64,000 bases of DNA, from IMG/VR virus record IMGVR_UViG_3300042892_003674; one strand, 5' to 3'. Position 1 is the stretch's first letter. Each line of letters begins with the position of its first letter. A program made the translations under genes and the position numbers. The notes beneath the pieces are model-generated. The model was not told the DNA's origin. It saw only the letters and a program-made list of their open reading frames with translations, and ran no database searches. The DNA comes from a virus. Its lineage: Duplodnaviria; Heunggongvirae; Uroviricota; Caudoviricetes. Below are positions 17,292 to 64,000 of this stretch, in pieces.

Positions 17292-17318
17292 AAAAAAGAG
17301 AGCTAATGCTCTCTTTTT
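17292..17318. terminator. bidirectional intrinsic terminator
   Basis: AAAAAAGAGAGC-TAAT-GCTCTCTTTTT. Confidence 0.85.
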
Positions 17319-17595
17319 ATTTTAAAATTTCGTTTATTTTTATATCACGTAAAGCTTTTCTACTTATCATATAACTTTTATGAACTTTTATAATTTGATT
17401 CCAACCTATACCATCTAATGAATGTGTTGCAACAAACAAATCATCATAAGTTATAGATTTTATAGTATATTCAACATCATCTTTTATTGATCTTGGATGT
17501 CCTCTAGAGTTTCTTCTAAAACAGATTACTTTATCACCTACTTTATAATCAACACTACCATTTTTTATATGTCCTATTAAGTTCCCAGTATCCAT
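17317..17595 (-). CDS. hypothetical protein with C-terminal RxxKIxxIL tag
   Basis: ends RDIKINEILK; SH3-like YKVGDKVIC start. Confidence 0.55.
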   Translation of the reverse strand: MDTGNLIGHIKNGSVDYKVGDKVICFRRNSRGHPRSIKDDVEYTIKSITYDDLFVATHSLDGIGWNQIIKVHKSYMISRKALRDIKINEILK

Positions 17596-18608
17596 TTTGA
17601 ATCGTGATTTACGTTAGTATCATAAAGTGCATATTCTACTTCAACCTTTTCAAACCCAAATTTATCTTCATTAAGTAAAAACTTAATCAATTCAACATCA
17701 CGTTCAAAATCTTCTTTACAAGTCATACTATCTCTATAAGTAAGCATATTCACAAACTTACTACCATCCTTAGATTTCTTAAAGAAGTTTTGTGATAATT
17801 TACAAGTACCACCTAATTCTATTTGTGATGGTCTACTAAATCCTCTACTCGGTGAAAAGAAACCGGCATTTAATTCTTCAACTAAACCTTCTAAATAAGG
17901 CTTTTCCTCTGGTGAGATAACAACACCAATATGACTCTCAAAGTAACACCCATTTGGTATAGGTTCGCCAGTATTAAAGGTAGGTGCTGCAGGGTGCCAA
18001 GGAACTGTTTCTATCTTCTTTCTGACAACTTTATACCCAAGTGATGTTAGTTCATTAGTAATACGATTTGCTTCTTCATAAGCACTCCTATTGTCTCCAA
18101 AGTGTTTTGAACTTGTCATTACATCTTTTAAAGTTCCTTCTTTCATTTCTAAATCTAAAACAATTGGTTTTACACCAATTTCTTTACAATCATCAATAAA
18201 TTCATCATTGGTAAAAGTCCAACTAAAGTCTAGCTTACTTTTGTTGAATAACATATCTGCTTTAACCGTAATATGTATTTCAAAAGGAAGTGGAAATGTT
18301 GCTTCTTCCTCTTTTAATTGAAGTTCTGCCCATTTTTTAGATTTTTTATTTAACATATCATTCATTTCTTCATCAGTAAATCCTAATGAATGTGCGATAG
18401 AAATGTTTGTTAAATAAACATCAACAATCTCTTCTAAGATTTGTTCTCTGTCTGAGAAACGGTGATTAGTTCCTGGTGCAGAATCATATGGTAGAATAGC
18501 ACGAGCTAATTCACCTACTTCTTCTGCAAGTTTTAATCCTTTCTGTGAAAGTGTTTTCTTATCTTTAATTGATAAGTCTTTTATAAAATCATCTAAAAAT
18601 TTATTCAT
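17577..18608 (-). CDS. MazG-like NTP pyrophosphohydrolase fused to an uncharacterised domain
   Basis: KLAEEVGELA...EEIVDV MazG motif; C-terminal domain with EIHITV / KIETVPW / YFESH. Confidence 0.75.
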   Translation of the reverse strand: MNKFLDDFIKDLSIKDKKTLSQKGLKLAEEVGELARAILPYDSAPGTNHRFSDREQILEEIVDVYLTNISIAHSLGFTDEEMNDMLNKKSKKWAELQLKEEEATFPLPFEIHITVKADMLFNKSKLDFSWTFTNDEFIDDCKEIGVKPIVLDLEMKEGTLKDVMTSSKHFGDNRSAYEEANRITNELTSLGYKVVRKKIETVPWHPAAPTFNTGEPIPNGCYFESHIGVVISPEEKPYLEGLVEELNAGFFSPSRGFSRPSQIELGGTCKLSQNFFKKSKDGSKFVNMLTYRDSMTCKEDFERDVELIKFLLNEDKFGFEKVEVEYALYDTNVNHDSKWILGT

Positions 18609-19189
18609 TATATGTGCATAAGTAAGTTAAATCTCATTGTTAAAGCAGATAAATCGTCTGCGTGTTTTTGTTTCTCATTTCTATTTGTAGAACTATCCTC
18701 AATCATTTTCAACTTCTCATTGATAACATAAGTGAAGGGTGTAATTCTAATACCATTTTGCTCAATAAACTCTGGTAATTCATCAACAATAATTAAATGA
18801 ACATCAACTGCACCACGTCTTATAATATCATCTGAATAATCAGGGTAAGAAGTCCAAAGTTGCTTCTTAATACTAATTACACTATCAGTTAAATTATACC
18901 TAAATTTAAAGTGATCACAGATTTGAAAAGCCATTTCCTTTGTAATTAAAAAGTCAAAGTCATTTGGTCTTCTATCCATCATTTCTTTACCATTTATACT
19001 ACAACACTTCAAAGCACGAGAACCGGTAAGTACACCACCAAGATTGGTGACATACTTAATCAGTTTCCAGTTAAGTTTTAAAAATTGATACTTACTTCTA
19101 CTTTTAGACGTATCATATTGAACATTATAACCACCGGTTAACATATTCAGATTGATGTCTCTCACGTAAGCCTTTAACGTCATTGTCAT
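18608..19189 (-). CDS. putative nucleotidyltransferase (Pol-beta superfamily)
   Basis: VLTGSRAL...NDFDF; C-terminal KHADDL. Confidence 0.6.
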   Translation of the reverse strand: MTMTLKAYVRDINLNMLTGGYNVQYDTSKSRSKYQFLKLNWKLIKYVTNLGGVLTGSRALKCCSINGKEMMDRRPNDFDFLITKEMAFQICDHFKFRYNLTDSVISIKKQLWTSYPDYSDDIIRRGAVDVHLIIVDELPEFIEQNGIRITPFTYVINEKLKMIEDSSTNRNEKQKHADDLSALTMRFNLLMHI

Positions 19190-20148: not shown

Positions 20149-20152
20149 AATA

Positions 20153-20473
20153 CTAATTATTTTTATTTAGAATTAAATCTATTGCATTCTCTCTTAAAGT
20201 TTGTTTATTGACTCTAAAATTATGTTGTTTCTTTAATTTATTTATAAAGTGTTTAAAATTAGGTGGATAAAGTGTTATATCTCCCCATCTAGTTTTAGTT
20301 ATTGTTGGTTCTGTTAGTTTATTAAACCGTTTCTCATGTTTCCAAAGAAATAAAACATCATATTGTTTCTTTGGTGATAGTGATTCAAACCAAACAATAT
20401 TTTTACCCATCTTATTTCTAAGAGATTTCAATTCCTTTTTATGTTTTCTCTTTTTTCTTTCCTTCTCTAACAT
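20153..20473 (-). CDS. hypothetical protein with C-terminal R-tag
   Basis: ATG at 20473 (MLEKERK...) just after a TAnnTTTG promoter; ends RENAIDLILNKNN. Confidence 0.55.
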   Translation of the reverse strand: MLEKERKKRKHKKELKSLRNKMGKNIVWFESLSPKKQYDVLFLWKHEKRFNKLTEPTITKTRWGDITLYPPNFKHFINKLKKQHNFRVNKQTLRENAIDLILNKNN

Positions 20474-20477
20474 AGTA

Positions 20478-20491: not shown

Positions 20492-20848
20492 TTATTCTGA
20501 TTTTGGTAGAATTTGATTTAATTTAATTTCTCTTAACTCTTGTAAAGAAAAATCAATATATTCAGAAGAAGAAAGACTTATTGTATAATCATTATTAAAT
20601 GAATTTTTACCTACTATTCTATATCTTCCATTTTCTTGTGTCACTTTATAATCATCAGGTAGTTGATTAAGATCTAGAACATTATCATATCTATCCCAAA
20701 CAATTTCATACTTACCTATCTCTTTATATTTAAGAAGACCTTTAATTTGTCCTGTTGTATAAAGTTTTAAACCATTTAACTTTCGTCTGGTGTTTAACTT
20801 ATCTTTTAATTTTTTTATGAAATATGTTTTGAACAACGGACTATTCAT
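20492..20848 (-). CDS. hypothetical protein with C-terminal R-tag
   Basis: ends REIKLNQILPKSE. Confidence 0.55.
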   Translation of the reverse strand: MNSPLFKTYFIKKLKDKLNTRRKLNGLKLYTTGQIKGLLKYKEIGKYEIVWDRYDNVLDLNQLPDDYKVTQENGRYRIVGKNSFNNDYTISLSSSEYIDFSLQELREIKLNQILPKSE

Positions 20849-22413: not shown

Positions 22414-22415
22414 GT

Positions 22416-27250: not shown

Positions 27251-27916
27251 ATGAAACATTTAAGAGTATTTGAAAATTTTGATAAAAAAGAAGATCAGTT
27301 TGATATTGAAAATGTTATGCTTTATATGGTCAATGTACTTGACAATTATAAAGTAAACTTCTTTGATGTTGATAATAATATGATCAATTCTAATGATGAA
27401 AATATAAATGACTTTCAACTAACAAAAGATTATCATAGTGTTAGAAGAAGTAGATTTATGGTAGAGATTATGCAAGATGGTCATAATCCAATAAGTATTC
27501 ACGAGGTTGCAGAGATTTCAATTGAAATGAGTACTACTATAAAACACTTAGAAAGAGAAGGTTGGATTTTATCTAGTTATCACCTTAATCAATCTAAAGA
27601 TAGAGATACTGGTAAAGTTGTATTCTATTATATTCATTATACTTTTTCAAAAGAAGATCAAGAAATTGAACCTACTAAAAGTTTACAAGATACTATATCT
27701 ACTAATACAATATTAAGAGCATTTAAAAAAGAAGGTATTGAAATTGAAAAACAAGATATTAAACATTTAGATGATTCTATTGAAATTGAAGATTGGTACA
27801 CTGAGTATCTATCAAATAATCAAGTAGAAGATTCTCTTGATAAAATAACAGATCTTTTAGGTGCTACTGAATGGGAATGGTATCATGGAACAAATGGTAT
27901 AAGATTTCAATTTTAA
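27251..27916 (+). CDS. hypothetical protein with capsid-targeting-like leader
   Basis: ATG at 27251, MKHLRVFENF; ATATATA just upstream. Confidence 0.6.
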   Translation: MKHLRVFENFDKKEDQFDIENVMLYMVNVLDNYKVNFFDVDNNMINSNDENINDFQLTKDYHSVRRSRFMVEIMQDGHNPISIHEVAEISIEMSTTIKHLEREGWILSSYHLNQSKDRDTGKVVFYYIHYTFSKEDQEIEPTKSLQDTISTNTILRAFKKEGIEIEKQDIKHLDDSIEIEDWYTEYLSNNQVEDSLDKITDLLGATEWEWYHGTNGIRFQF

Positions 27917-28260
27917 GAATATAAAAAGTCTTGATATTTTTCTTCATCAGTTAAATCTATCTCAATAACACAATCTTTCTTTAAAGGTGTAGTAAATACA
28001 ACACACACAGATTTCAAGTATTCTGTTTGAATTCCATTCAAAAGTTCATCTAAAATTAAATCTCTTTCATCTTCTTTAGTAAGTTTCTCACCTGTGTCGA
28101 TATAGATGTTTATCTTCCACGGGAGACGTTTATTTACAAAAGTCATAACTGACTGCTTATAAACATTTGGTTGTCTTAATTGTCTTTTAAATGTAAAAAC
28201 TGCAAAGATTACAACTCTTACAATATAATGGTGATAAACTTCATTTATATCTAATTTCAT
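27913..28260 (-). CDS. hypothetical protein (internal RDLILDELL motif)
   Basis: 115 aa ORF. Confidence 0.5.
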   Translation of the reverse strand: MKLDINEVYHHYIVRVVIFAVFTFKRQLRQPNVYKQSVMTFVNKRLPWKINIYIDTGEKLTKEDERDLILDELLNGIQTEYLKSVCVVFTTPLKKDCVIEIDLTDEEKYQDFLYS

Positions 28261-28690: not shown

Positions 28691-28721
28691 AAAAAACCCA
28701 CTAAATTAGTGGGTTTTTTTT
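28691..28721. terminator. bidirectional intrinsic terminator
   Basis: AAAAAACCCACTAA-A-TTAGTGGGTTTTTT. Confidence 0.85.
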
Positions 28722-29330: not shown

Positions 29331-29684
29331 TTATTTGTTTAATATACTTGAAAGTTTAAAATGTCTTTGGTACTCTTTTATACATGCATCATTTTTCTTA
29401 ATACAATTTAACATTTCTGCATTTGATTTAATTTCTATTTTTTCTTCTATGTTTTCTTCCTTCTTTAGATGTGATGATACGTTATAGAAACTACTACTTC
29501 TATTCGGATAACCTTTTTTATCTAAATCAAAAGTTCCCTTAGATTTAATAAAATAAATTTTATCATTTTCATATAGAATTGAATAAATTCGGTCTGTTCC
29601 ATGAAATACCCACGGATATTCTTTGGCCCAATGGTTTATAACCCAACCGAATTTATATAAAAATATTGTATTTATCTCAAACAT
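29331..29684 (-). CDS. hypothetical protein with C-terminal R-tag
   Basis: ends RHFKLSSILNK. Confidence 0.55.
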   Translation of the reverse strand: MFEINTIFLYKFGWVINHWAKEYPWVFHGTDRIYSILYENDKIYFIKSKGTFDLDKKGYPNRSSSFYNVSSHLKKEENIEEKIEIKSNAEMLNCIKKNDACIKEYQRHFKLSSILNK

Positions 29685-40415: not shown

Positions 40416-40873
40416 AACAATAGACTCTTTAGTTTAACATCCCTACTAAATGATTTTATATCATCTATATAAGTACATTCATACTTATCTAAAATTTCAC
40501 TATAACAAGTCCATCTATCTTTTCTTTTTGACCAAAAGGAAACCAATGGATCATCTGATCTACCAACTGGTACATACAAGTCTTTATTATTCGCTAAACA
40601 ATAATCGACTAGATCTTCTATTTTAGAAGGATCATTTATAAAGATGTCTAAGTGATAAACCATTACACAGTCTTGATCAATTTTAGAATAATCAAAATTC
40701 TCTGGTTTATTTATACCCCATTTTCTCATACCAAGATTTTCTGGTAATTTATACTTATACAAAAGTAAAGTACTTAAATTATTCTTATTAAGAAGTCCAT
40801 ATATTGTAAGAAGATCTTTTCTTTCTTGGTATTTACCTTCCCACGCGAACTTATCATCTATTCTATAAATCAT
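40412..40873 (-). CDS. hypothetical protein with C-terminal R-tag
   Basis: ends RDVKLKSLLF. Confidence 0.55.
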   Translation of the reverse strand: MIYRIDDKFAWEGKYQERKDLLTIYGLLNKNNLSTLLLYKYKLPENLGMRKWGINKPENFDYSKIDQDCVMVYHLDIFINDPSKIEDLVDYCLANNKDLYVPVGRSDDPLVSFWSKRKDRWTCYSEILDKYECTYIDDIKSFSRDVKLKSLLF

Positions 40874-43254: not shown

Positions 43255-43286
43255 AAAAAACCCAGTCATTGACTGGGTTTCTTTTT
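43255..43286. terminator. bidirectional intrinsic terminator
   Basis: AAACCCAGTCA-T-TGACTGGGTTT flanked by A and T tracts. Confidence 0.8.
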
Positions 43287-45944: not shown

Positions 45945-47677
45945 TATGATAGAACTGAAGTGATTTTATCGTCTCTTAAAACAGCAGTAACCGTACTTAA
46001 ATCGTGATTTTTAATCTGATATAATTCAGTTCCTTCTGGGAAGTTTACAATAACTTCTGCATAATTATCGTCAAATTGATGTTGAATGTAATCATCTAAA
46101 TCAAATTCATTTGAATATGTACCATCATCTAATCTAGCTGAAATTCCAACTGTACCAACAAATCCAGGAATGATATAAGCATCAACAATGTCTGTGTAAC
46201 CTTCATGATCTTCATCAGCTAACCAGGTCTTATACTCATTGAGGGTTATTACCGAACCAAATCCGCTACAAGAGATATACTTTTTAGTGTCTTTTCCACC
46301 AACATAAAGATCAAATCCACTTTCATCATCAGTTACTTGAAAATCATTACCATCACCAAGGATAACAATCGTTTCTGGTTTGTCAAATGTTCTCAAAGTT
46401 TTTTGTTTAAACTCTGGGTTCTCTACTTTTTTAGTAAGTTCTCTAGTCGGATGAACTGTGTTAGGTTCAGTTTTTGATTCAATAAGAACAAACTCACCAT
46501 CAGAACCTTCCGCACCACCAGTTTTCACTTCATATGAATTAGAACCGGCAATCTTGTCAAATTCTGGTTCTTGTTCAAAACCTTTCTTCAACATTTTTGC
46601 AGTAAGTTGGTGCCAGTTTAATTTACCTCTGTATTCAAATTCACCTTCTGCAGTAACCGTAAGCTTACCAAATAAGTCAACCGATTGAACTAATTTATAA
46701 ATTTCTTTAGTAGCTTCTTTATCTTCAAAGTTATCCTTCTTAGCGATAGAGATTTTGTAGAAACTTTCAGTTAAGTGTTTAATCAAAACATCTTTTTTAA
46801 GTTTCATTAGGTCAGAAATTCTACCTACTAATTCAGTATCAGAGTCAGATAAACCAATTTCACTTTTTTGTTCATCAGAAACTAAGAAAACATATCCATT
46901 AGGAGTTGCGTTAGGAACTAATGTTTCTAAACGAGTTTCTAAAATAGAAAGTGCTTCAGAAGATTTCTCTGCATTAGCTTCAGCATGTTTAGCTTCTGAA
47001 TTATACCTTTTAATCTCTGTCTCAGTTTTTTCAATACGTTCTTTCAACTCATTGATTTTATCTTCATTCATTTTGTTGAATTGCTCTTCCATATAAGTAA
47101 GAGCGATTGGTTTTTCAACAACAACTTCCTCGATAACTTGTTCAACTACCGGTGTTTCGTCCTCAATGGTTTCTATAGTTTCACCTGATAATAACATATC
47201 AAGAAAACTCAAACCTTTTTCAGATAATTCAGTAGTTTCTTCTTTTTGTTTTTCTTCTTCAAAAAGGTTCATAAGTTTATCATAAGGTTTAACGTGTTCT
47301 ACTTCAAGAAAACATTTATAACCATCTTGATCTTCAAATTCTAAACCAGCAACAATAAATTTTTGAGCATACCCACTAACATCAGTTGAGTCAATTTCAT
47401 TGATCAAACGTTGTTTCATTGCATTATCTGCTAAGTTAGTACCTTCAACTTCTTCAAAGTTGATAGTTCCTTCATCACAAATTGTTATTTTGAATTTAGC
47501 ACGTTCTAACATACCAGATAGTTTTCTACCTTCGATAAAGGCAGTTTCTCTGATTAAACGTATTTTCTTACCAGAAATGGCAGAAACGAAACTTAAAAAC
47601 TTTCGTTTAGGTTTGAAATCACCGATAACTGGTTCTTTAACGATTATCTCTTTTTCTTCAATATTATTCTCAATCAT
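45944..47677 (-). CDS. acidic coiled-coil hypothetical protein with C-terminal R-tag
   Basis: 577 aa; ends RDDKITSVLS. Confidence 0.6.
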   Translation of the reverse strand: MIENNIEEKEIIVKEPVIGDFKPKRKFLSFVSAISGKKIRLIRETAFIEGRKLSGMLERAKFKITICDEGTINFEEVEGTNLADNAMKQRLINEIDSTDVSGYAQKFIVAGLEFEDQDGYKCFLEVEHVKPYDKLMNLFEEEKQKEETTELSEKGLSFLDMLLSGETIETIEDETPVVEQVIEEVVVEKPIALTYMEEQFNKMNEDKINELKERIEKTETEIKRYNSEAKHAEANAEKSSEALSILETRLETLVPNATPNGYVFLVSDEQKSEIGLSDSDTELVGRISDLMKLKKDVLIKHLTESFYKISIAKKDNFEDKEATKEIYKLVQSVDLFGKLTVTAEGEFEYRGKLNWHQLTAKMLKKGFEQEPEFDKIAGSNSYEVKTGGAEGSDGEFVLIESKTEPNTVHPTRELTKKVENPEFKQKTLRTFDKPETIVILGDGNDFQVTDDESGFDLYVGGKDTKKYISCSGFGSVITLNEYKTWLADEDHEGYTDIVDAYIIPGFVGTVGISARLDDGTYSNEFDLDDYIQHQFDDNYAEVIVNFPEGTELYQIKNHDLSTVTAVLRDDKITSVLS

Positions 47678-47732: not shown

Positions 47733-48140
47733 CTATTCTACTTCTTTTTCGTCAATTAGATCAATTCTAATATCACGAACTTCATCTTTTGTAAACACTT
47801 CACTAACTTTATTATCTTGAGAATCGACAATGTTTTCTGTTTCGATGTAAGTATCACCGGTTTCAGTAATTAAGCTTAATAAGGTCTCATTTTTAACTTC
47901 TTTATCATCTTGAACGTCAAATATTTCCATAATTTGTTTTTCAAAAGGAATGAAGTTGTGTTTAACGACTAAGTTTTCGTCGTCATGTTTGTCTAAGCAA
48001 AGTGTAAGTAATAAATATAACTCTCTATCCGAAAGTTCATTCATTCTTTCTATTTGACTGTAAACATTGAAATGTTTGTAGATGTCCATAAATAAATCTG
48101 AAACAACCACCGTTTTTGTTTTTTCTCCCATAATTCTCAT
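47733..48140 (-). CDS. hypothetical protein with C-terminal R-tag
   Basis: ends RDIRIDLIDEKEVE. Confidence 0.55.
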   Translation of the reverse strand: MRIMGEKTKTVVVSDLFMDIYKHFNVYSQIERMNELSDRELYLLLTLCLDKHDDENLVVKHNFIPFEKQIMEIFDVQDDKEVKNETLLSLITETGDTYIETENIVDSQDNKVSEVFTKDEVRDIRIDLIDEKEVE

Positions 48141-48142: not shown

Positions 48143-48619
48143 TTAAATTCCTAATTTTTCTAATTGATAATCTCTATAATCTTGTTTAGAGACAGTTCCT
48201 AATTCATAGGCTCTTTGAAAAAATACCTCAAATACACTTTCGTATATAGGTTCATTCTCAACTCTTTCTAACTGTCTAGCAACCATAGCTCTATTGATGG
48301 CTTTATGTTCATCAGTAATTCTAATAGCTTGTGTTCTGGCTAATCTAATAGCTTTTTCCTCGTCACCAGCACATTTAGTGAAGATGTCTCTTACTCTAGT
48401 ATAATTCTTTGTATATTCTGCTTTTGTTTGACCATTGTAGTCTCCGTTTTGGTTTTTAGGCATAAATTCTAGTGTTATTAGTTTACATTCGAGCATCACT
48501 TCAAATTGTTGTTTTGCTCTCATACCTTTATATTCTTTTAATAAGGAATATTTATTTGATTGTTGATACTTAATCCAAAAGTAATACAAATCCGTTAGAT
48601 CTACAAATTTTTTATTCAT
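48143..48619 (-). CDS. hypothetical protein with C-terminal R-tag
   Basis: ends RDYQLEKLGI. Confidence 0.55.
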   Translation of the reverse strand: MNKKFVDLTDLYYFWIKYQQSNKYSLLKEYKGMRAKQQFEVMLECKLITLEFMPKNQNGDYNGQTKAEYTKNYTRVRDIFTKCAGDEEKAIRLARTQAIRITDEHKAINRAMVARQLERVENEPIYESVFEVFFQRAYELGTVSKQDYRDYQLEKLGI

Positions 48620-49370
48620 TATTTATAACTTCATCAATTCTTGCTGTTCTACTCCAAGTTAGTTGGTCTTCTTTCATAAGGGTTGAATTACCATATCTAA
48701 TAATAGTATCTGGTTTATCATTTAGTATCTCACTAAGAATATATTCGATCGTGTATTTATTTCCTGTTTGTTGATACTCATATTTTAAAACAAGATAATC
48801 GATTGAACGATTTGTGACATCTGAAACAACTTCTGATATTTTAAATTTAGGTTCAATAATTAGAAAGATTAAGGCATCTTCAATAAACTTTACATAACCC
48901 ATTATGTCACCTAAATTACCTTCAATCATATAATCATACTTTGTATAGTCTTTTTTATATAAAGTATGGTACTCATTTTTAAAATCAATTGTAAGACTAT
49001 CAAGGTTTATATCACGGTATGTACCAACAGTTTTGCCAAAACCATCATTTAGATAAACTTTAGTTTGTAAATTACTATGTTTGATTATATTGTAGATTTC
49101 ATGAAACTTATCAACCATAGAGTTCTCTATTGAGAAAACTAAGTTATATCTTATATGTGGTTCTTTTACAACATTACCTGAATTATTTGTGTAAAGATTT
49201 CTACCCCAACTTTGTTGTGATACTTCCGGTCTTGTTATATCTGGAGAGTATTCAATTGCAGGAAATATTGTATTTGAATTATATTGTGCTTTGATAAAAA
49301 TACCTAGTTGATGATCTATAAGTCGATCATTCCAAGACATTATTTCTCTATCACTTAGTGATGTTATCAT
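48612..49370 (-). CDS. hypothetical protein with C-terminal R-tag
   Basis: ends RTARIDEVINNE; internal RDINLDSL. Confidence 0.55.
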   Translation of the reverse strand: MITSLSDREIMSWNDRLIDHQLGIFIKAQYNSNTIFPAIEYSPDITRPEVSQQSWGRNLYTNNSGNVVKEPHIRYNLVFSIENSMVDKFHEIYNIIKHSNLQTKVYLNDGFGKTVGTYRDINLDSLTIDFKNEYHTLYKKDYTKYDYMIEGNLGDIMGYVKFIEDALIFLIIEPKFKISEVVSDVTNRSIDYLVLKYEYQQTGNKYTIEYILSEILNDKPDTIIRYGNSTLMKEDQLTWSRTARIDEVINNE

Positions 49371-50805: not shown

Positions 50806-51273
50806 TTAAACTAATAAACATAATTGATAATCTCTACCAATAGAGATTTCATTTTTCCAAGTATCTAGTCTCCTAACGAGATTAGTGTGTAAGTGATTGT
50901 ATAATTCTCTGTTTATTCTTTCTGGTGAACCAACTAACTCCTCAAATAGTGTGATTAAGTCAGATGTCATCCACACTCCATCCATACTTCTAATAAAGAA
51001 ATGTTTCTCATTGGCTCTAATAATAAAGTTGATAATATCTTTCATTTCAATATAAATGTGATCATTGACATGCCATTTATCTCTCCATTGATTAACTTGT
51101 GGATCTAATATTGATTCTAAAGTTTTATCATAAGAGATAGGTTTGGGTCTAAATCCAATATATTTATCCCACTTCTCTTTAATATAAGAAGGATCACAAT
51201 CAATGAAGTCATTATGTGATTTGTGGAATGCGAAGCTGAACCTAATAAGGTTGTCGATTTGATTTTTGTTCAT
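50806..51273 (-). CDS. hypothetical protein with C-terminal R-tag
   Basis: ATG at 51273 (MNKNQ...); ends RDYQLCLLV. Confidence 0.55.
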   Translation of the reverse strand: MNKNQIDNLIRFSFAFHKSHNDFIDCDPSYIKEKWDKYIGFRPKPISYDKTLESILDPQVNQWRDKWHVNDHIYIEMKDIINFIIRANEKHFFIRSMDGVWMTSDLITLFEELVGSPERINRELYNHLHTNLVRRLDTWKNEISIGRDYQLCLLV

Positions 51274-52214: not shown

Positions 52215-52229
52215 GATGTCTTTTTTTTT
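52199..52229. terminator. bidirectional intrinsic terminator
   Basis: AAAAAAGACATC-ATAA-GATGTCTTTTTT. Confidence 0.85.
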
Positions 52230-52230
52230 A

Positions 52231-52611: not shown

Positions 52612-52647
52612 TTGATTTAATTTTCTACAAAAGTAAATATACTTTTT

Positions 52648-52893
52648 TTAATTTCCTAATATTTGATTTAATTTTTCTTCTCTTATTTCGTCTATTGTTT
52701 CAAAATAGTTAGTAAAGTTTTCCTCAGTGCCAATCCAATCACAAAAATCAAATTGGTAAATCTTTACTCCTTCTTCGTGTTGTCTTAATAAGACAACATA
52801 GTATTCACCTTCTTCAAATTGAAAGTATGGTTGTGTTAAGTTCCAATAGAAACTTTCCTTACATCTACATCTTTCTTTACTTATCTCCTTCAT
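52648..52893 (-). CDS. hypothetical protein with C-terminal R-tag
   Basis: ends REEKLNQILGN. Confidence 0.6.
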   Translation of the reverse strand: MKEISKERCRCKESFYWNLTQPYFQFEEGEYYVVLLRQHEEGVKIYQFDFCDWIGTEENFTNYFETIDEIREEKLNQILGN

Positions 52894-53260
52894 TTAATAC
52901 ATTTTCTATTTTTAAATTTCTTTTATATTGTAAAGTTACATCATCAAAAATAAATGAGTTTAAATCAATCATTTCTTTACTTAGAATAGTTTCCTGTTCT
53001 ATATCAATTTTTTCATCATCACTTATGTAAAAATCTAAATAAGTATAAGTAGTTGTTGTTTGATGTGATTTAAAGAAACGAGTACAAATGATGTCACCTT
53101 TTTTTAAATCTAATGTATAGGTTAAATCATCCCAATCATTTATATTACGTAAGTCTCTTTCTCTAGCATTGTCCAATACAGATATAGTAAAGTCATTCAA
53201 CATTTCATAATAATGAAATTGTTGATACTTCTCATGAATATATCTTGGTAAGTATTCCAT
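52877..53260 (-). CDS. hypothetical protein with C-terminal R-tag
   Basis: ends RNLKIENVLNEGDK. Confidence 0.6.
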   Translation of the reverse strand: MEYLPRYIHEKYQQFHYYEMLNDFTISVLDNARERDLRNINDWDDLTYTLDLKKGDIICTRFFKSHQTTTTYTYLDFYISDDEKIDIEQETILSKEMIDLNSFIFDDVTLQYKRNLKIENVLNEGDK

Positions 53261-53418
53261 TAAAGTTCTTTCTCTTTGTTTCTATTATCAATAACAACTC
53301 TTTTACAACCATCACAAACAACGACTGGTCCTTCTTTTGTCATTACAACTTTTCTTAAACACTCTCCTTCACAGAAAGTAGTTCCAACTGGAGCGTATTT
53401 TCTTAATTCTTTATCCAT
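53260..53418 (-). CDS. 52-aa putative zinc-ribbon protein (not in ORF track)
   Basis: MDKELRKYAPVGTTFCEGECLRKVVMTKEGPVVVCDGCKRVVIDNRNKEKEL*; stop overlaps next ATG; TATATTTG promoter at 53433-53440. Confidence 0.7.
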   Translation of the reverse strand: MDKELRKYAPVGTTFCEGECLRKVVMTKEGPVVVCDGCKRVVIDNRNKEKEL

Positions 53419-53465
53419 ATTATAAATTTTTACAAATATAAGAATAATTTATCAATATATAAAAT

Positions 53466-53705
53466 ATGGAGGATTTTTTATTGAAGAATGGATTTTTATA
53501 TGTAAAAGATTTTGATGAATGGGAAAAGAAAACATTCGAGGGTAAGATGATTGTTTTTAAGAGAAATTTAATTAGTAGATGGATATTATCATATGAAGAT
53601 GGTGATAATTATTTACATGAATTAAAGTCTGGAAGTGAGGATGATGTGTTACTTTCAATTAAAGAATATGAGAGAGATAGAAAGATTAGAGAGATTTTAG
53701 GATAA
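53466..53705 (+). CDS. hypothetical protein with C-terminal R-tag
   Basis: ends RDRKIREILG. Confidence 0.6.
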   Translation: MEDFLLKNGFLYVKDFDEWEKKTFEGKMIVFKRNLISRWILSYEDGDNYLHELKSGSEDDVLLSIKEYERDRKIREILG

Positions 53706-53755
53706 ACAAAGAAAAATTTTTTACTATATATAAGACAAAAAATCAAGTTTTATAA

Positions 53756-55594: not shown

Positions 55595-55843
55595 ATGGAT
55601 ATAATAATTAAATATCATGAAAAAACATCTGGTGAAAATCAGATGTTTCTTTTAGATTTAACTAAACATTATCAAATTGTGCCAATAAATACCCCACAAT
55701 CAAAAGTAGATTTATCTAAATATGATGGTAAAATTGTTTATGGTATTTTTGAAGGATATGGACGTATTGATGGTAACTCTATTTTTATAATAGATACTTT
55801 ACAAATAGATAGAGATTTAAAAATAAATGAGATTTTAGAATAA
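55595..55843 (+). CDS. hypothetical protein with C-terminal R-tag
   Basis: ends RDLKINEILE. Confidence 0.6.
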   Translation: MDIIIKYHEKTSGENQMFLLDLTKHYQIVPINTPQSKVDLSKYDGKIVYGIFEGYGRIDGNSIFIIDTLQIDRDLKINEILE

Positions 55844-56163
55844 TGAGAGATCGTGCCTGGAGAAGATATAAACAAGATGTGAAGTTGTTACAACGCCTTC
55901 ATAATATTATATTTACCTATGGTTGGGGTCATAAAGATGAGAATGGAGTATATCTCGTAAATCCCTCAATAAAAAGTTTTATAGGTTCTGATTTATATTG
56001 TAAGTTTAAAACACACACAACTGATAGACACGACTCTCGTTATAAAACAAAATACTCACCAAATAAACAAAACTCTTACTACCGTGATAATAACAAAGAT
56101 GGTAGAAGAGAATTAGATAAAGTTATTTTTTTTAAAATGTTAAAAGAATATGGAATTAAGTAA
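55843..56163 (+). CDS. basic hypothetical protein
   Basis: 106 aa, coupled ORF. Confidence 0.5.
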   Translation: MRDRAWRRYKQDVKLLQRLHNIIFTYGWGHKDENGVYLVNPSIKSFIGSDLYCKFKTHTTDRHDSRYKTKYSPNKQNSYYRDNNKDGRRELDKVIFFKMLKEYGIK

Positions 56164-56671
56164 TCTAATACCAAATAAATCAGATGATTGGAATATAAAA
56201 AAAGGAACTCTTTTTTATAAGAAACTCCAAAATATACCAATGGCTAAAATTGATGATGAGATAGTTTATGTTTTTTTAGAATGTTCTATACCAAGAGTAG
56301 TAATTGATTTAGTTAAACATCTTATGAAGATTGGGGTAGAGTTTTACTTTCTACCACCATCTTGGTCACATCCAGCTACCATTATTGATAACTCTATTGT
56401 AATAAAACATTACTTCACATCTTATTCAAAAGACAAGTTTTTTATAGGTTTTAATAAGATAGGTTTTGATATGATGGGTAACCTAGTGAATTGGTGTAAG
56501 AAAGAAGATTGTATTCCTTTGATAAAAGAGAATTATAATGAGATAAATAAAAAAGTTCAAAAGACTTATTACGATTGGTATGTGAATAAGGAAGTAAGTA
56601 GTTATTCTGATGATATAAGAGAAGAGTTTAGAACTTTATATCGTGATATACAAATCTCTATGATTTTATAA
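56150..56671 (+). CDS. hypothetical protein with C-terminal R-tag
   Basis: ends RDIQISMIL. Confidence 0.55.
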   Translation: MELSNLIPNKSDDWNIKKGTLFYKKLQNIPMAKIDDEIVYVFLECSIPRVVIDLVKHLMKIGVEFYFLPPSWSHPATIIDNSIVIKHYFTSYSKDKFFIGFNKIGFDMMGNLVNWCKKEDCIPLIKENYNEINKKVQKTYYDWYVNKEVSSYSDDIREEFRTLYRDIQISMIL

Positions 56672-56715
56672 CTTATCGATTATTTTGAATATAAAGAAAA
56701 AATAACTAACTTAAA

Positions 56716-57096
56716 ATGGCTAAAAAATGGACAACAAATACAACTGCTAATGCTAATACTTCAATCGGTACTTCAATCGGTTATGCAGCGGGTACTAATA
56801 ATAATATAATAATGGCAAATGGAACTGTAGCCATAGGATCTGGAGTGTATTCTGGAACTTCTGCAACTATAACACCACAAAAAGTAACTTATCATGTATT
56901 AGGTGAAGATATAGAAGTAAGTGGCTACTATGATACAAATCTTATTATGATTATAGCAACTTTAAATATATTAAAGAAACCTTATTATGATGAATTAAAA
57001 AAGAATAGGTTTAAATTTCCAGAAGAAATAGACAATTGTTTAAGAATTGGATTCAGAGATAATTTAATTGATGATTTAATGAAACCTAATTTTTAA
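56716..57096 (+). CDS. hypothetical protein with C-terminal R-tag
   Basis: Thr/Gly/Ala-rich N-terminus; ends RDNLIDDLMKPNF. Confidence 0.55.
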   Translation: MAKKWTTNTTANANTSIGTSIGYAAGTNNNIIMANGTVAIGSGVYSGTSATITPQKVTYHVLGEDIEVSGYYDTNLIMIIATLNILKKPYYDELKKNRFKFPEEIDNCLRIGFRDNLIDDLMKPNF

Positions 57097-57478
57097 CCCT
57101 TTCTGGCCAGGTTTTATGAGTAAATCTTATAAGAAAAACATTTGGTACAAATCCTTGAGTAAATTGTTTATACTCTATTAAATAATCTGGATATTCTATT
57201 TTTACTTTTTTAACACACTCTTCAACATCTAAATATAGTTTTTGAGTTTCATATCCACAAGTAGTAAATGGTGTAATGTCTTGAAAGTATGAGTTTGCAA
57301 AATTCTTAACTTCTGGCATAGGTACATTAAAAGATAAATCTATTAGTTTGTCTGTTCCAAATCTTTCTAACTTACGAAAACGTTCACTCTCGATTAAATC
57401 GATGAAACACATTTCGATATACTCTACATCGATTTTTTCAGTATTTGATTCTGTTATGAGCTTTTTTAAGTATTTCAT
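57086..57478 (-). CDS. hypothetical protein with capsid-targeting-like leader
   Basis: starts MKYLKKLITES; TAATATATA immediately upstream. Confidence 0.6.
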   Translation of the reverse strand: MKYLKKLITESNTEKIDVEYIEMCFIDLIESERFRKLERFGTDKLIDLSFNVPMPEVKNFANSYFQDITPFTTCGYETQKLYLDVEECVKKVKIEYPDYLIEYKQFTQGFVPNVFLIRFTHKTWPERVKN

Positions 57479-57549
57479 AACTTATATATTAAAAAGTCTT
57501 ACAACATAAGTGTTATTTTCTATATAAATAAAAAATAAGATAAAACTAC

Positions 57550-58521
57550 ATGAGAGTAGATTTAGTAATTGATGGTAACTACATTTTAAGTAAGTTAGTT
57601 TTTACCCTACACAAACACAACTTACTTTTCGGTGGATTACACAAAGCATTAGAAGCAGCAGTTGGTAATTACAGAAAGTGGTACCCTTTCACAAATATTT
57701 ATTTAGTATCAGATTCAAAAGAAAAATCTTGGAGAAAAGATTATACTGATAACTACAAAGGTACAAGAAAAAAAGATACTGACATTGACTGGAACTTTGT
57801 TTACACTGCTTATGACGAGTTTAAACAATCTTTAAAAGGTCAAATGATCGTATTAGAAGCACCAAAGGTGGAAGGAGATGACTGGATCAGCTACTTAGTT
57901 GAGAAAGCAAATGAAGAAGAAAGATGTGTTATTATAGTTTCAAATGACTATGATATTAAACAACTAGTAAATTATCGTTTAAATCCACTAACAATAAACA
58001 TAATGACGAATGAGATGTATAACAAAGAGAAGTTATTTCTACCTAGAAATTATCAAATCTTTGTCAATAAGGTTACTAAGCTTCCAAATGATGACATCTT
58101 TAATCTCAATGATAATACAGAGTTTTTATTACTATTGAATAAGTTTATTGATAAGTATGAGATACACGAAATAAATCCTATTGAATCTTTAATTGTAAAG
58201 ATTATTTCAGGTGACCAAAGTGATAACATTGGTTCAGTTTGGAGTGTTACCAAAAATGGTAAGAAAAGAGGAATTGGGGCAGCAGGCGCTCAAACAATTT
58301 ATAATGAGTATATTTCTGAATTTGGTGAGGTTAGTTTAACTGATCCTGACTTATATGAAAACATTGCAGATTTAATTTGTGAGAAAAAGAAGTTAAGTAA
58401 AAATCAAATAGAACCAATTGTAACAAACATTGAAAAAAATGTAAAACTAATTGATTTAAGATTGATAAACTTACCAGATGAGATTATAGAGAAAATGAAT
58501 CAAGTTTATAATAATAGATAA
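57550..58521 (+). CDS. rnh: T4 RNase H-like 5'-3' exonuclease (FEN/PIN-like)
   Basis: IDGN, SWRK, YKGTR, EGDD, SNDYD.KQL, GDQSDNI. Confidence 0.85.
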   Translation: MRVDLVIDGNYILSKLVFTLHKHNLLFGGLHKALEAAVGNYRKWYPFTNIYLVSDSKEKSWRKDYTDNYKGTRKKDTDIDWNFVYTAYDEFKQSLKGQMIVLEAPKVEGDDWISYLVEKANEEERCVIIVSNDYDIKQLVNYRLNPLTINIMTNEMYNKEKLFLPRNYQIFVNKVTKLPNDDIFNLNDNTEFLLLLNKFIDKYEIHEINPIESLIVKIISGDQSDNIGSVWSVTKNGKKRGIGAAGAQTIYNEYISEFGEVSLTDPDLYENIADLICEKKKLSKNQIEPIVTNIEKNVKLIDLRLINLPDEIIEKMNQVYNNR

Positions 58522-58907
58522 TGGCAGAATTGATAGACGTTTTTAACGCAATGATTAAAAGAGGTAATTGGGAAGCGATCACCGTTGAAGAAAAAGAAAA
58601 AAACTTTTTCATATTTAACAGGTACTTTTCGAAGAAGTACCCAGTACAAGCACAACTTTTAAACTTAAAAAACATAGATAAAGTAGTCGCTATGGAACTT
58701 TGGTATCAGTTTATGAAGAATGAACCTTATCCCAGTTATTTCTGGTCTAAAAGTGAGAAAAATGATAAACCGATACTTGCACCAAAGGATTACAAAATAC
58801 TATTGGTGAGTTTAAAGATTAAACCAGATGATTTAGATTACTTAATTGAGAAACATTTCGATTTCGTTAAAGAAGAATTATCATATCTAAAAAAAGTAAA
58901 TACATAA
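58521..58907 (+). CDS. putative clamp-loader small subunit (gp62-like)
   Basis: FFIFNRYFS...LN...K.....WY.F.......FWSK pattern and position among replication genes. Confidence 0.45.
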   Translation: MAELIDVFNAMIKRGNWEAITVEEKEKNFFIFNRYFSKKYPVQAQLLNLKNIDKVVAMELWYQFMKNEPYPSYFWSKSEKNDKPILAPKDYKILLVSLKIKPDDLDYLIEKHFDFVKEELSYLKKVNT

Positions 58908-58921
58908 AAATAAAATATAAT

Positions 58922-59476
58922 ATGAGTACAGAAGTTATAAATAAAACAGACATGAAGTGGTATGTAGTACGTACCCAGGGTAACCGTGAAAAATCAGTTG
59001 GAGAGCGTCTTACAAAAGAAGCTGAGAAAGGAGATCTTATAGGTAAAGTAGGACAAGTAATTGTACCACTTGAAAAGATTGTTTATCTTAAAGATGGTAA
59101 GAAAGTTCAAAAAGATAAAATTATGTTACCTGGTTATATCTTTATGGAAACGAATTCATTAGGAGAACTTAAATACTTTTTAAAAAGTGTTAAAGGTGTT
59201 GCTGGTTTCTTAACTGAAAGAAATGGTGATATTAAATCTCTTACTGAAAATGAAGTAAATAGAATGATTGGTAGACATACAGAATCAATGAATAAAGAAA
59301 CAACAATTACATTTATTGTTGGTGAAGAAGTTATGATCAACGAAGGACCATTTACTTCAATGAAAGCTACTATTGAGAAAATAGAAGACCAGAAAGTAAC
59401 TCTAGCAGTTTCAATTTTCGGAAGAAAAACTCCATTGACTTTGGATTTACACCAGATTGATAAAATCCATGGATAA
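58922..59476 (+). CDS. nusG: transcription elongation factor NusG
   Basis: KWYVVRT..NRE, LPGYIF, V.GV.GFL, KOW GEEV.I.EGPF, VSIFGRKTP. Confidence 0.92.
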   Translation: MSTEVINKTDMKWYVVRTQGNREKSVGERLTKEAEKGDLIGKVGQVIVPLEKIVYLKDGKKVQKDKIMLPGYIFMETNSLGELKYFLKSVKGVAGFLTERNGDIKSLTENEVNRMIGRHTESMNKETTITFIVGEEVMINEGPFTSMKATIEKIEDQKVTLAVSIFGRKTPLTLDLHQIDKIHG

Positions 59477-59681
59477 TCGATCTTTAATTAGTAAGATAAA
59501 CAAAGCAGCAAACGCAATTAGCAGATCTTCTATAAGAGGTTCTGCTAATTATGTTGTTACATCAAAAGAAACTTATGAAGAGTTTCATAAGATATTAAGG
59601 AGACATAGAAGAGTTGAGAAAATTAAAAGAATAATGAAATGGAAAAGAAAAAACAAGAAAGATACGATCAAGTATATCTAA
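59469..59681 (+). CDS. small protein resembling a gp23-type major capsid protein fragment, with C-terminal R-tag
   Basis: LISKINKAANAISRSSIRGSANYVVTS resembles the conserved gp23 segment (..E/K-ANxIA/HRxTxRGxGNF/WxxxS); then RVEKIKRIM. Confidence 0.5.
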   Translation: MDNRSLISKINKAANAISRSSIRGSANYVVTSKETYEEFHKILRRHRRVEKIKRIMKWKRKNKKDTIKYI

Positions 59682-60052
59682 ATATGGCTCATGAGTGGGC
59701 AACACTTTCACATTGTACAAGAAAACAAGTAGGTGCAATAATAGTTAAAAATGGTATGATAGTATCAGATGGTTACAATGGGACACCTACAGGGTTCGAT
59801 AACTGTTGTGAGACGAATGATGAAACTAATTGGTTCGTTATTCACGCAGAAGCAAATGCTATCTTAAAATGTGCTAAACACGGTCAATCGTGTGATGGTG
59901 CTACATTATATCAAACACATTCTCCGTGTAGAGATTGTTCTAAATTAGTTCTTCAATCAGGAATTAAAAGATTAGTTTATCACGAAGATTATAAAGATAT
60001 AACTGGTGTAGAGTTTTTAAGAGAAGCTGGAGTAGAAATAGTTAAAATATAA
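59639..60052 (+). CDS. dCMP deaminase
   Basis: S.C.RKQVGA, GYNG, HAEANAI, SPCRDC. Confidence 0.92.
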   Translation: MEKKKQERYDQVYLNMAHEWATLSHCTRKQVGAIIVKNGMIVSDGYNGTPTGFDNCCETNDETNWFVIHAEANAILKCAKHGQSCDGATLYQTHSPCRDCSKLVLQSGIKRLVYHEDYKDITGVEFLREAGVEIVKI

Positions 60053-60516
60053 TGTATAGTAGAATTATAAACGGAATAAACCAAACTTATAAAGGTTCGT
60101 TAGTACCCATCGATAATTATTGTTTGGAAGGATTAGTAGCCTTTGTAGAAAACTCACGATTACTTGGAGGAACTGGTATTACTGCTAAATTTGACTTATC
60201 ATTATGGATGAATGATTTTCTTATTAAACATGTTGATAAGATTTCTTATACTACTATAACACCAAGTTTTTCTATACAGAGTTTAGAAGATGGTAGACTA
60301 ACTGAAAAAGTTATCGCAGTTAAAAGTATAACATTCAATAGTGATGCTGAACTTGATGATTTCTTCGAAAATCAAATAGGTAAAAAACTAGTGGTATACA
60401 CCATCGGTAAGTTTATTGATTTAAGTAATATGGCAATTTCTTATGAGTTAAGATATGCTGATATAACTTTAAAAAGTGAACAAAGAGAAATTAAATTAAA
60501 TAAAATACTACAATAA
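60052..60516 (+). CDS. hypothetical protein with C-terminal R-tag
   Basis: ends REIKLNKILQ. Confidence 0.6.
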   Translation: MYSRIINGINQTYKGSLVPIDNYCLEGLVAFVENSRLLGGTGITAKFDLSLWMNDFLIKHVDKISYTTITPSFSIQSLEDGRLTEKVIAVKSITFNSDAELDDFFENQIGKKLVVYTIGKFIDLSNMAISYELRYADITLKSEQREIKLNKILQ

Positions 60517-60983
60517 TGGAACTAATTACAACAAGAGTATGTATGGCCTCACAGATAGGAGTACATGGAAATTTATTTGGTGGTGAAATGATGTCAATTT
60601 TAGACGAGTCCGCAGCAGTTTACTGCTGTCAGATTTGTGATACACCAAGAATGGTTACAAAGAAAATTGAAGAAGTAATTTTTCAAAGACCAGTTAAAAC
60701 TGGTAACTTAATCAAAATTTATGGGAGTGTTGAAAGAATAGGTACTACATCTATTACAATAAATCTTGAAGCAAGAAAACATAATGTTTATACAGGAGTT
60801 CAAGATTTAGTTTGTTCAACTAAAATGGTATTCGTTAGAATTGATGATGAAGGAGCACCAGTACCGATTTCAGAGAGAGTTAAGAAAAGATATGATGATA
60901 GAGTTAAATTGTTTGGTAGAGGATTACTAACACCAGAGGAAATGGTTATAGAGAGAAGTAAAAAGAAAAAAGAGGACAAATAG
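60516..60983 (+). CDS. hotdog-fold acyl-CoA thioesterase (YciA-like)
   Basis: HGNLFGGEMMSILDE, F.RPV..G, IGTTSI, FVRID..G.P. Confidence 0.85.
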   Translation: MELITTRVCMASQIGVHGNLFGGEMMSILDESAAVYCCQICDTPRMVTKKIEEVIFQRPVKTGNLIKIYGSVERIGTTSITINLEARKHNVYTGVQDLVCSTKMVFVRIDDEGAPVPISERVKKRYDDRVKLFGRGLLTPEEMVIERSKKKKEDK

Positions 60984-60992
60984 TCCTCTTTT
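60966..60992. terminator. bidirectional intrinsic terminator
   Basis: AAAAGAGGAC-AAATA-GTCCTCTTTT. Confidence 0.8.
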
Positions 60993-60993
60993 A

Positions 60994-61368
60994 TTATTTT
61001 GTTAAGTTTAGTAAACCTCTTTTTACTTGTGGTACACTAAGTTTGTATGATTTACCTTCAAACTCAGCTATGATTGGATAAGTTCTATTTCTCGTTTTGA
61101 TGTCAGTGATAGTGAATGTTTTACCATTTACTACAGTAAATCTACCGATAACATTACCATCAAATCCTAACATTTTAGAAGTATTATCATTTACAGTGAT
61201 AACTCTTTCAGTGATAACTTTAGTTTTAACCGTCATTGTAGTGTTATACTTAGCACTATCATATCTACAAGAACCAAAAGAAATATCTACATTCTCTTCT
61301 CTTGCGATTTGAGCGATTGCTGCTTTGATTTTTGCTTGAACTGAATTGATTTTTGTTGAAGTTATCAT
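60994..61368 (-). CDS. hypothetical phage protein
   Basis: 124 aa; TATATTTG promoter element at 61397-61404. Confidence 0.6.
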   Translation of the reverse strand: MITSTKINSVQAKIKAAIAQIAREENVDISFGSCRYDSAKYNTTMTVKTKVITERVITVNDNTSKMLGFDGNVIGRFTVVNGKTFTITDIKTRNRTYPIIAEFEGKSYKLSVPQVKRGLLNLTK

Positions 61369-62426: not shown

Positions 62427-62440
62427 AAAAAAATTAAAAT

Positions 62441-63775
62441 ATGAAGCTTTGGACTAAAGGATTTGATACAAATAAAGAGATTGAGAGATTTACGGTAGGT
62501 AAAGATCGTGAAATGGATTTGATGATGGCTAAGTTTGATGTATTTGGATCATTGGCACATATAAAGATGTTGCAGAGTATTAATCTTCTAACTTTAGAAG
62601 AACATGATATTCTTAAAAAAGAACTTTTAATCATCTTAGATGAGATTAAAAATAATAATTTTCAAATAGAAGAAAATATAGAAGATGTTCATTCACAAGT
62701 GGAGCTTCTTCTTACTAGAAGAGTAGGTGAGATTGGTAAAAAGATTCATAGTGGTAGATCTAGAAATGACCAAGTTCTTTTAGATTTAAAATTATTTATT
62801 CGTGATAAAATAACAGATGTGGTAAAGATAAGTAATGAACTTTTCAATACACTTATTGAACTTAGTGAAGAGTATAAAGATGTTATGATGCCAGGTTATA
62901 CTCATTATCAAGTTGCAATGCCATCTTCATTTGGACTTTGGTTTGCTTGTTGGGCAGAAAGTTTAGTAGATGATATAACACAACTTGAAGCGGCTTATAA
63001 AATTACTAATAAGAATCCATTAGGTTCTGCAGCTGGTTATGGTTCTTCTTTTCCATTAAATAGAACTTTAACAACTGAGTTATTAGGATTTGATACATTA
63101 AATTATAATGTTGTTTATGCTCAAATGGGTAGAGGTAAGGTAGAAAGAATTGTATCACAAGCTCTATCATCAATTGCACAAACTTTAAGTAAGATGTCAC
63201 AGGATGTATGTTTGTTCACTAATCAAAATTATGAATTTATGAAATTACCTAATGAGATTACAACTGGTTCAAGTATTATGCCACATAAGAAAAATCCAGA
63301 TGTTTTTGAATTAGTAAGAGCGAAGTGTAATAAATTAAGTTCACTATCTAATGAAATAACACTAATAACAACTAATTTGTCATCTGGATATCACAGAGAT
63401 TTACAAATGATTAAAGAAAGTTTTATGCCAGCATTTGATGATTTAATTGATTGTTTACAAATAAGTAATTACTCACTTAAACAAATCTCAGTAAATAAGG
63501 AAATACTTAATGATGATAGATATAAATATTTATTCTCAGTTGAAGAGGTGAACAATTTAGTTCTACAAGGTAAAAGTTTTAGAGATGCTTATCGTGAAGT
63601 TGGTGATAACATAGAGTCTGGTAAATATGATTTTGATAATAAGACAACTAATCATACCCATGAAGGAAGTATTGGGAACTTATGTAATGAACAAATAAGA
63701 AATCAAATGCAACTAATAATTGAGAAGTTTAATTTTGATAAGGTTGATAAAGCTATAGAAAGTTTATGTAAATAA
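62441..63775 (+). CDS. argH: argininosuccinate lyase
   Basis: KLW, EDVH, HSGRSRNDQ, MPGYTH, GSSIMPHKKNPD, YHRDLQ. Confidence 0.95.
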   Translation: MKLWTKGFDTNKEIERFTVGKDREMDLMMAKFDVFGSLAHIKMLQSINLLTLEEHDILKKELLIILDEIKNNNFQIEENIEDVHSQVELLLTRRVGEIGKKIHSGRSRNDQVLLDLKLFIRDKITDVVKISNELFNTLIELSEEYKDVMMPGYTHYQVAMPSSFGLWFACWAESLVDDITQLEAAYKITNKNPLGSAAGYGSSFPLNRTLTTELLGFDTLNYNVVYAQMGRGKVERIVSQALSSIAQTLSKMSQDVCLFTNQNYEFMKLPNEITTGSSIMPHKKNPDVFELVRAKCNKLSSLSNEITLITTNLSSGYHRDLQMIKESFMPAFDDLIDCLQISNYSLKQISVNKEILNDDRYKYLFSVEEVNNLVLQGKSFRDAYREVGDNIESGKYDFDNKTTNHTHEGSIGNLCNEQIRNQMQLIIEKFNFDKVDKAIESLCK

Positions 63776-63801
63776 AAAAATCCACCTTAGGGTGGATTTT
63801 T
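63774..63801. terminator. bidirectional intrinsic terminator
   Basis: AAAAATCCACC-TTAG-GGTGGATTTTT. Confidence 0.85.
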
Positions 63802-63805
63802 AATT

Positions 63806-64000
63806 CTATTCATTTAATATCTGATTTAATTTTTCTTCACGTTCATCTTGTAAGGTATATAACATAACATCTTTATGTTCAACCCAGTTATTTATATAAC
63901 TATTTTTAGTTCGTACTCTATATTCAAGTTTATAACTACTTTTAATACTTGGTATTATGTATCTTTCATTTATATCTATGATAAATCCAATATGATAAAA
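63806..64000 (-). CDS. hypothetical protein, 5'-truncated by window edge, with C-terminal R-tag
   Basis: Open frame to TAG at 63806-63808; ends LQDEREEKLNQILNE. Confidence 0.7.
   Translation of the reverse strand, partial: FYHIGFIIDINERYIIPSIKSSYKLEYRVRTKNSYINNWVEHKDVMLYTLQDEREEKLNQILNE

Follow-up and report, generated by a model that had tools for sequence, protein, structure and literature searches.

The DNA analysed here is a stretch of 64,000 nucleotides (the window) from the Caudoviricetes virus record IMGVR_UViG_3300042892_003674, in which many otherwise unrelated proteins end in the same short peptide, here called the tag. The window encodes a topoisomerase that shares 79% identity with its counterparts in LR745206.1 (635 kb) and LR756502.1 (642 kb), and the window groups with the 630-680 kb Mahaphage genomes. 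LR745206.1 and LR756502.1 have been assigned to the Mahaphage clade and count among the largest curated phage genomes, with Bacteroidetes as predicted hosts (PMC7162821). The host is uncultured and known as Bacteroidetes by prediction only.

The tag follows the consensus K-x-x-x-R-[DEN]-x-K-[IL]-x-x-[IL]-[LG]. Its arginine (Arg0) is 99% conserved and is followed by Asp, Glu or Asn, by Lys at +3, and by Ile or Leu at +4, +7 and +8; Arg0, Lys+3 and the hydrophobic residues at +4, +7 and +8 share one helix face. The first-pass annotation, made from the letters alone, had listed 19 C-terminal peptides, and all of them were found at the genes to which they had been assigned. A strict pattern matched within the final 16 residues in 15 of the 90 window proteins. 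The number expected was 0.04 on the internal rate, 0.05 on whole-protein shuffles, and 0.17 on shuffles of those 16 residues (maximum 3 in 2000 shuffles). One of the 15 matches, in open reading frame (ORF) 1997-2632, fails the profile and is probably due to chance. A held-out profile, trained solely on LR745206.1 and LR756502.1, placed the tag at 15 of 92 window C-termini, compared with 0.49 when cuts were placed at random inside proteins and 0.24 when sequences were shuffled. The tag is real, and the proposed enrichment at C-termini is borne out. ORF counts in this study are from our own simple caller, not Prodigal. Most of the listed copies hold and are C-terminal; the scores are weak for both copies in ORF 48612 (the internal one is present) and for those in 50806, 56716 and 59469, and in 59469-59681 the tag stands 23 residues short of the protein end. 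The N-proximal or internal copies reported in 15179, 18608 and 27913 score well (13-19 bits).

Conservation acts at the protein level, as had been suggested: the codon use at tag positions is close to that of the genome as a whole, and 375 occurrences of the motif are in frame versus 6-14 in each other frame. These observations rule out a DNA repeat or a regulatory element at gene ends. In 267 of 374 copies the Arg lies 9-11 residues from the protein end, while the tail beyond the motif ranges from 0 to more than 10 residues and the last residues are not conserved. A free-carboxylate C-degron of the ssrA or Prc type was rejected because of the variable tail and the internal and N-terminal copies, and identity with the UVR motif because the spacing differs. 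A comparison of the tag profile with PDB sequences gave nothing significant, and no description of the tag was found in the literature covered, which largely excludes subscription journals. The possibility exists that the tag is a turnover label, acting as degron or stabiliser on its own carrier, through which an early cohort would be cleared or protected together. Such a role would suit the mostly C-terminal copies, but not the variable, unconserved tails or the strong N-terminal and loop copies, and we consider it unlikely.

The first-pass count of about 19 proteins is far too low for a whole genome. C-terminal tags were found in 183 of 953 ORFs of LR745206.1 and 185 of 974 ORFs of LR756502.1, compared with approximately 4 expected, and two distant genomes, LR756504.1 (152/905) and a 676-kb IMG/VR contig (155/1127), are also tag-rich. 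Tagged ORFs thus make up 14-19% of the total, or 150-185 per tag-rich genome. The spelling varies between lineages: residue +1 is D, E or N in 156/183 and 162/185 carriers of the first two genomes and K or R in 99/152 and 116/155 carriers of the other two, and the 676-kb contig often has Phe at +8. LR756501.1 (735 kb) contains about nine copies in a further spelling. Contigs with a topoisomerase at least 64% identical are mostly tagged near that gene, whereas almost none with at most 57% identity are. In two unbiased scans of 2.9 million viral contigs by DNA pattern, most hits came from the Mahaphage-type clade. One lineage is tag-poor (8/192), one 246-kb contig is tagless (0/314), and 50-kb samples of the cultured Bacteroidota-type jumbo phages PTm1, pT24, PAU, LR756500.1 and Lak-B5 had 0-1 tags each. 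Even as a plain label, the tag marks this phage clade in metagenomes.

Lineage-wide spelling would also be accounted for if tags bind tags, producing mixed oligomers or a condensate of early proteins with no separate reader. The amphipathic character, the complementary charges in two of the spellings, and the lack of a reader gene in the presence-absence profile described below agree with self-association. On the other hand, a nine-residue helix is rather short to hold a stable oligomer together, a single invariant Arg is seen more typically in pocket binding, and single copies occur within helicase loops; this explanation appears rather improbable.

Two other sets of alike-ended proteins were observed. 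In LR756501.1, 45 proteins end in the acidic sequence D-P-Y-G-E-E-x-W, an unrelated second tag (e.g. L265:11314-11850 and L292:12409-12918), and their genes have late-type and host-type promoters alike. The tagless 246-kb contig (G009) encodes approximately 18 dispersed paralogues (L362-L374) with the N-terminal leader described below and a common C-terminal segment, which form a true family and not a tagged set.

The carriers of LR745206.1 and LR756502.1 have a median length of 109 residues. As the first-pass annotation had noted, the carrier bodies of the window display no mutual similarity by BLAST (best E 0.02); the 177 bodies of LR745206.1 fall into 175 BLAST components and a further set of 181 bodies into 172. 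No Pfam family recurs among the carriers, and a PHROG is shared by two of them at most. AlphaFold predicted an SH3-like barrel for ORF 52648 and an unrelated alpha/beta plus helical fold for ORF 56150, with the tag helix ending both. Fold searches matched 52648 only weakly to SH3 structures (E 0.4 or worse) and gave no clear match for 56150 (Z 5.5 or less), and the ESM Atlas matches were only unnamed viral clusters or weak ones. A subset of SH3-like carriers exists (3-13% by a crude pattern), and the carrier folds of the relatives also include ABC, receiver, ankyrin, flavokinase and HK97 pieces. A single homologous domain family ending in this helix was therefore rejected, since the bodies are unrelated by sequence and the folds differ.

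The statement that no housekeeping enzyme is tagged is correct for the C-termini of the window but fails in the relatives, where riboflavin kinase, BtpA, an ABC ATPase, and receiver and ankyrin proteins are tagged, as are pieces of ClpC M-domain and DNA polymerase; a few carriers contain both a ClpC M-domain piece and the tag. Transmembrane segments are present in 3-9% of carriers. That both enzymes and membrane proteins carry the tag would agree with a turnover label. In orthologue families at 30-55% identity nearly all members retain the tag, and some orthologues without it end earlier. The tag is maintained by selection and can be added to existing proteins. The predicted amphipathic, terminal helix might instead bind the inner membrane and park early proteins there, but the invariant Arg, the acidic polar face, the paucity of aromatics, and the fact that some carriers already have a transmembrane helix make this very improbable.

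Some copies of the tag lie at an N-terminus or in a helicase loop, and a single protein can carry two. The +1, +4, +7, +8 register equals the spacing of the PIP box, which together with copies in two helicases of close relatives could indicate a sliding-clamp-binding peptide. In two genomes the polymerase tail likewise has Arg0 and hydrophobic residues at +4, +7 and +8, but the polymerase tails differ in hydrophobic pattern, lack Lys+3, and have no constant Arg across lineages. The tag was absent from the expected clamp clients (polymerase, late sigma, RNase H and clamp loader), and membrane-anchored carriers do not suit a clamp ligand, so that we give this explanation hardly any credence.

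Copies of the tag and related features in the window. Bits are profile scores; fractions refer to homologues that are tagged.
Feature	Position	Strand	Remarks
N-proximal copy (Arg16), 139-aa ORF 15179-15598	15527..15553	-	16.6 bits
C-terminal tag, 92-aa ORF 17317-17595	17323..17349	-	22.1 bits
N-proximal copy (Arg10), 193-aa ORF 18608-19189	19136..19162	-	13.2 bits
C-terminal tag, 106-aa ORF 20153-20473	20168..20194	-	18.7 bits
C-terminal tag, 118-aa ORF 20492-20848	20507..20533	-	28.3 bits
Internal copy (Arg66), 115-aa ORF 27913-28260	28039..28065	-	19.1 bits; similar copies in both close relatives
C-terminal tag, 117-aa ORF 29331-29684	29340..29366	-	19.5 bits
C-terminal tag, 153-aa ORF 40412-40873	40418..40444	-	19.5 bits
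C-terminal tag, 577-aa ORF 45944-47677	45950..45976	-	16.6 bits; shorter untagged homologues in tag-poor lineage
C-terminal tag, 135-aa ORF 47733-48140	47751..47777	-	15.2 bits; 9/10
C-terminal tag, 158-aa ORF 48143-48619	48149..48175	-	23.2 bits; 9/10
Weak C-terminal tag (Arg241), 252-aa ORF 48612-49370	48624..48650	-	7/7
Second weak copy, ORF 48612-49370	48990-49016	-	
Weak C-terminal tag, 155-aa ORF 50806-51273	50809..50835	-	9.4 bits; 6/6
C-terminal tag, 81-aa ORF 52648-52893	52657..52683	-	25.6 bits; predicted SH3-like barrel and tag helix 67-79
C-terminal tag, 127-aa ORF 52877-53260	52895..52921	-	20.4 bits
C-terminal tag, 79-aa ORF 53466-53705	53673..53699	+	24.0 bits
C-terminal tag, 82-aa ORF 55595-55843	55811..55837	+	25.2 bits
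C-terminal tag, 173-aa ORF 56150-56671	56642..56668	+	Arg165 invariant in 36 orthologues; tag ends helix 154-172
Weak C-terminal tag, 126-aa ORF 56716-57096	57055..57081	+	8.3 bits; 25/25
Major-capsid-protein fragment (profile positions 404-433), 70-aa ORF 59469-59681	59478..59567	+	
Tag behind capsid fragment, ORF 59469-59681	59610..59636	+	8.4 bits; homologues tagged
C-terminal tag, 154-aa ORF 60052-60516	60484..60510	+	27.9 bits; 13/13
C-terminal tag, ORF 63806-64000 running off window end	63815..63841	-	24.6 bits

Among the other genes of the window, 35526-36686 and 38151-39275 encode polyphosphate kinase 2 and a polyA/CCA-type nucleotidyltransferase, respectively, and 62441-63775 encodes what by eye is an argininosuccinate-lyase-like protein. 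The product of 28720-29313 has a bifunctional nuclease domain and a UVR motif; each genome encodes several further UVR-ended proteins, which are possible ClpC partners. Many studies of lakes and other fresh waters have metagenomes with DNA nearly identical to that of the window, and two freshwater RNA runs contain 50% and 38% of the words of window 52000-61000.

According to the first-pass annotation, no protein carries both the tag and a certain N-terminal leader. This mutual exclusion holds in four genomes, with 0 proteins observed versus 15, 20, 7 and 7 expected among proteins of up to 250 residues. In these genomes the sequence ATATATA lies upstream of 85-90% of leader operons versus 7-15% of tagged operons. 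It also precedes capsid and protease genes in most genomes, and we read it as the late promoter. In three of the four genomes TAnnTTTG, the Bacteroidota housekeeping promoter element, is enriched at tagged relative to leader operons. The split is less pronounced within the window, where each motif is found at 4 of 11 tagged operons and ATATATA lies upstream of 10 of 10 leader operons. The tagged set thus appears to be mostly non-late, with promoter classes assigned from motifs, and this would explain why tag and leader exclude each other. A non-late cohort would also suit a turnover label.

The window has about 14 leader genes (e.g. 41495, 42019 and 42474), and the leader resembles the T4 capsid targeting sequence. 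T4 produces its internal proteins early, with a short targeting peptide common to them, and the tag could by analogy be a signal that loads proteins into the capsid for injection with the DNA. However, a set of this kind is already marked by the T4-like leader, which comes with late-type promoters and is never found together with the tag, some carriers are membrane-anchored, and up to 185 protein species would have to be loaded. A loading signal is therefore most improbable.

When the tag was removed before searching, the family profile of ORF 59469-59681 still matched six major capsid proteins (E 5e-11 to 3e-6). Searches made in the same way showed that each of the four tag-rich genomes has tagged short ORFs whose products match one or another part of the major capsid protein or the prohead protease of the phage itself. 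Among such fragments 13 of 22 are tagged, compared with 726 of 3172 small proteins (p 3e-4). In LR756501.1, 5 of 11 capsid, protease and sheath fragments end in D-P-Y-G-E-E-x-W (p 2e-3), so that a second, convergent tag marks fragments of a similar sort. Bacteria have STAND sensors that detect major capsid proteins (PMC13581612). Neither the capsid-fragment link nor the promoter-class link formed part of the first-pass account.

Several candidates for a reader of the tag were considered. Three of the tag-rich genomes have genes for ClpP, ClpS and a ClpC that lacks the N-terminal domain, which would provide a turnover label with a machine. This ClpC (LR745206.1 423224-425329, L297; likewise L303-L313) retains the M-domain and the ClpP-binding loop, and the genomes that encode it have 1-3 ClpP genes and ClpS. 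The phage ClpC/ClpP does not track the tag, and was rejected as the required reader, being neither necessary nor sufficient, since it is absent from the tag-rich 676-kb genome and present in two apparently tagless contigs.

A MoxR AAA+ protein (30633-31769) and a vWA-metallopeptidase (43286-44851) adjoin tagged genes in the window. The pair is highly conserved in the clade; all tagged complete genomes have it, in most cases behind host-type promoters, which fit poorly with a purely late role in assembly. In presence-absence profiling, just two non-enzyme candidates were shared by the four tag-rich genomes but missing from LR756501.1, namely a J-domain protein and a membrane protein of 378 residues. 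These are weak candidates, because the four lineages are related and LR756501.1 keeps about nine tags without the J protein. Complex prediction with the tag (residues 138-173 of 56150), MoxR, the vWA domain and the J-domain protein gave a score of 0.02, which speaks neither for nor against binding. The J-domain protein of the window (6880-7485) is an atypical class C protein with an invariant HPD, and none of its 590 homologues is named. The membrane protein (LR745206.1 564817-565953; L033:4817-5953) has a coiled coil and a C-terminal cytoplasmic domain, adjoins an AAA ATPase gene, and gave no family match.

Taken together, the helix in two unrelated folds, the absence of a shared family, gain and loss among orthologues, and the lineage-wide spelling suggest that the tag may be a portable docking helix by which one partner binds all carriers, a reading to which we give about an even chance. 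To this extent the amphipathic docking signal proposed in the first-pass annotation is retained; its list of functions was not narrowed, and no hub or partner was found. The partner would grip the tag through a hydrophobic groove and an Arg pocket, and the carriers would be handled as a single cohort during host takeover. Their variable bodies (SH3-like barrels, membrane-anchored domains and small enzymes) might be cargo or bait, and the capsid-protein and prohead-protease pieces might be bait recognisable by host sensors. Our preferred type of hub would be an ATP-driven chaperone or protease machine of host or phage origin; that many carriers deliver targets to such an unfolding or cutting machine is a guess, and a doubtful one, and any one specific hub has at best a slim chance. 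Tentatively, and with considerable doubt, the system may be a counterpart, in bacterial viruses, of the ubiquitin-ligase adaptors of other viruses, in which up to about 180 binders and baits, capsid and head-protease decoys among them, would use one handle to bring bound host defence proteins to one unfolding, cutting or sequestering machine, and other megaphage lineages would have arrived at different handles for the same task.

Apart from the missing partner, several results weigh against a docking helix of this kind. The promoter classes are assigned from motifs, and the topoisomerase operon, which has a late-type motif, contains two tagged window genes. The tag-rich 676-kb contig (98% complete by CheckV) has neither ClpC nor ClpP and two apparently tagless contigs have both, and MoxR-vWA also occurs in the tagless 246-kb contig. 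A self-associating helix would likewise shift its spelling genome-wide. Capsid and protease fragments make up only 1-5 of approximately 180 carriers per genome, some are orthologous, so that the p values overstate independence, and tagged enzymes such as riboflavin kinase and ABC ATPase suit a self-label better than a bait role.

Almost all functions of the accessory genes of the largest phages are unassigned, and one peptide groups about one-sixth of these genes. If capsid and protease fragments with a handle do act on host sensors, this would be an undescribed counter-defence strategy, and possibly a tool for targeted protein removal in Bacteroidota.

By analogy, the tag resembles other short docking motifs that are read by one partner, but it failed the membership features tested for each. 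The C-terminal clamp-binding tails of T4-type gp43, gp55 and gp33, and PIP boxes, are short terminal motifs on unrelated proteins with one reader. Their hydrophobic spacing is like that of the tag, but they serve a handful of DNA-handling clients, whose homologues here are untagged. The T4 capsid targeting sequence is N-terminal, ends in Glu and is cleaved by the prohead protease; it too is a short label on unrelated phage accessory proteins, whereas the tag is mostly C-terminal, and its look-alike here is the separate leader that excludes the tag. The poxvirus F-box module comprises some 30-40 residues. The poxvirus ankyrin-repeat/F-box substrate adaptors combine variable target-binding bodies with one short C-terminal helical docking module, as the tagged set does, and the likeness is an analogy only (PMC9414399). 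They differ in having one body family and a known machine (SCF), while there are up to 185 unrelated bodies, nine residues and a bacterial host here. For group 2.2 jumbo phages, a MoxR AAA+/vWA-metallopeptidase pair has been proposed to act in virion assembly (PMC7824862); no peptide tag is described there, and the pair occurs in the tagless contig too. SPO1 Gp53, an adaptor-like phage protein of Bacillus subtilis ClpCP (PMC6873191), is likewise a small early phage protein that docks on an AAA+ protease, but it is one protein without a shared tag.

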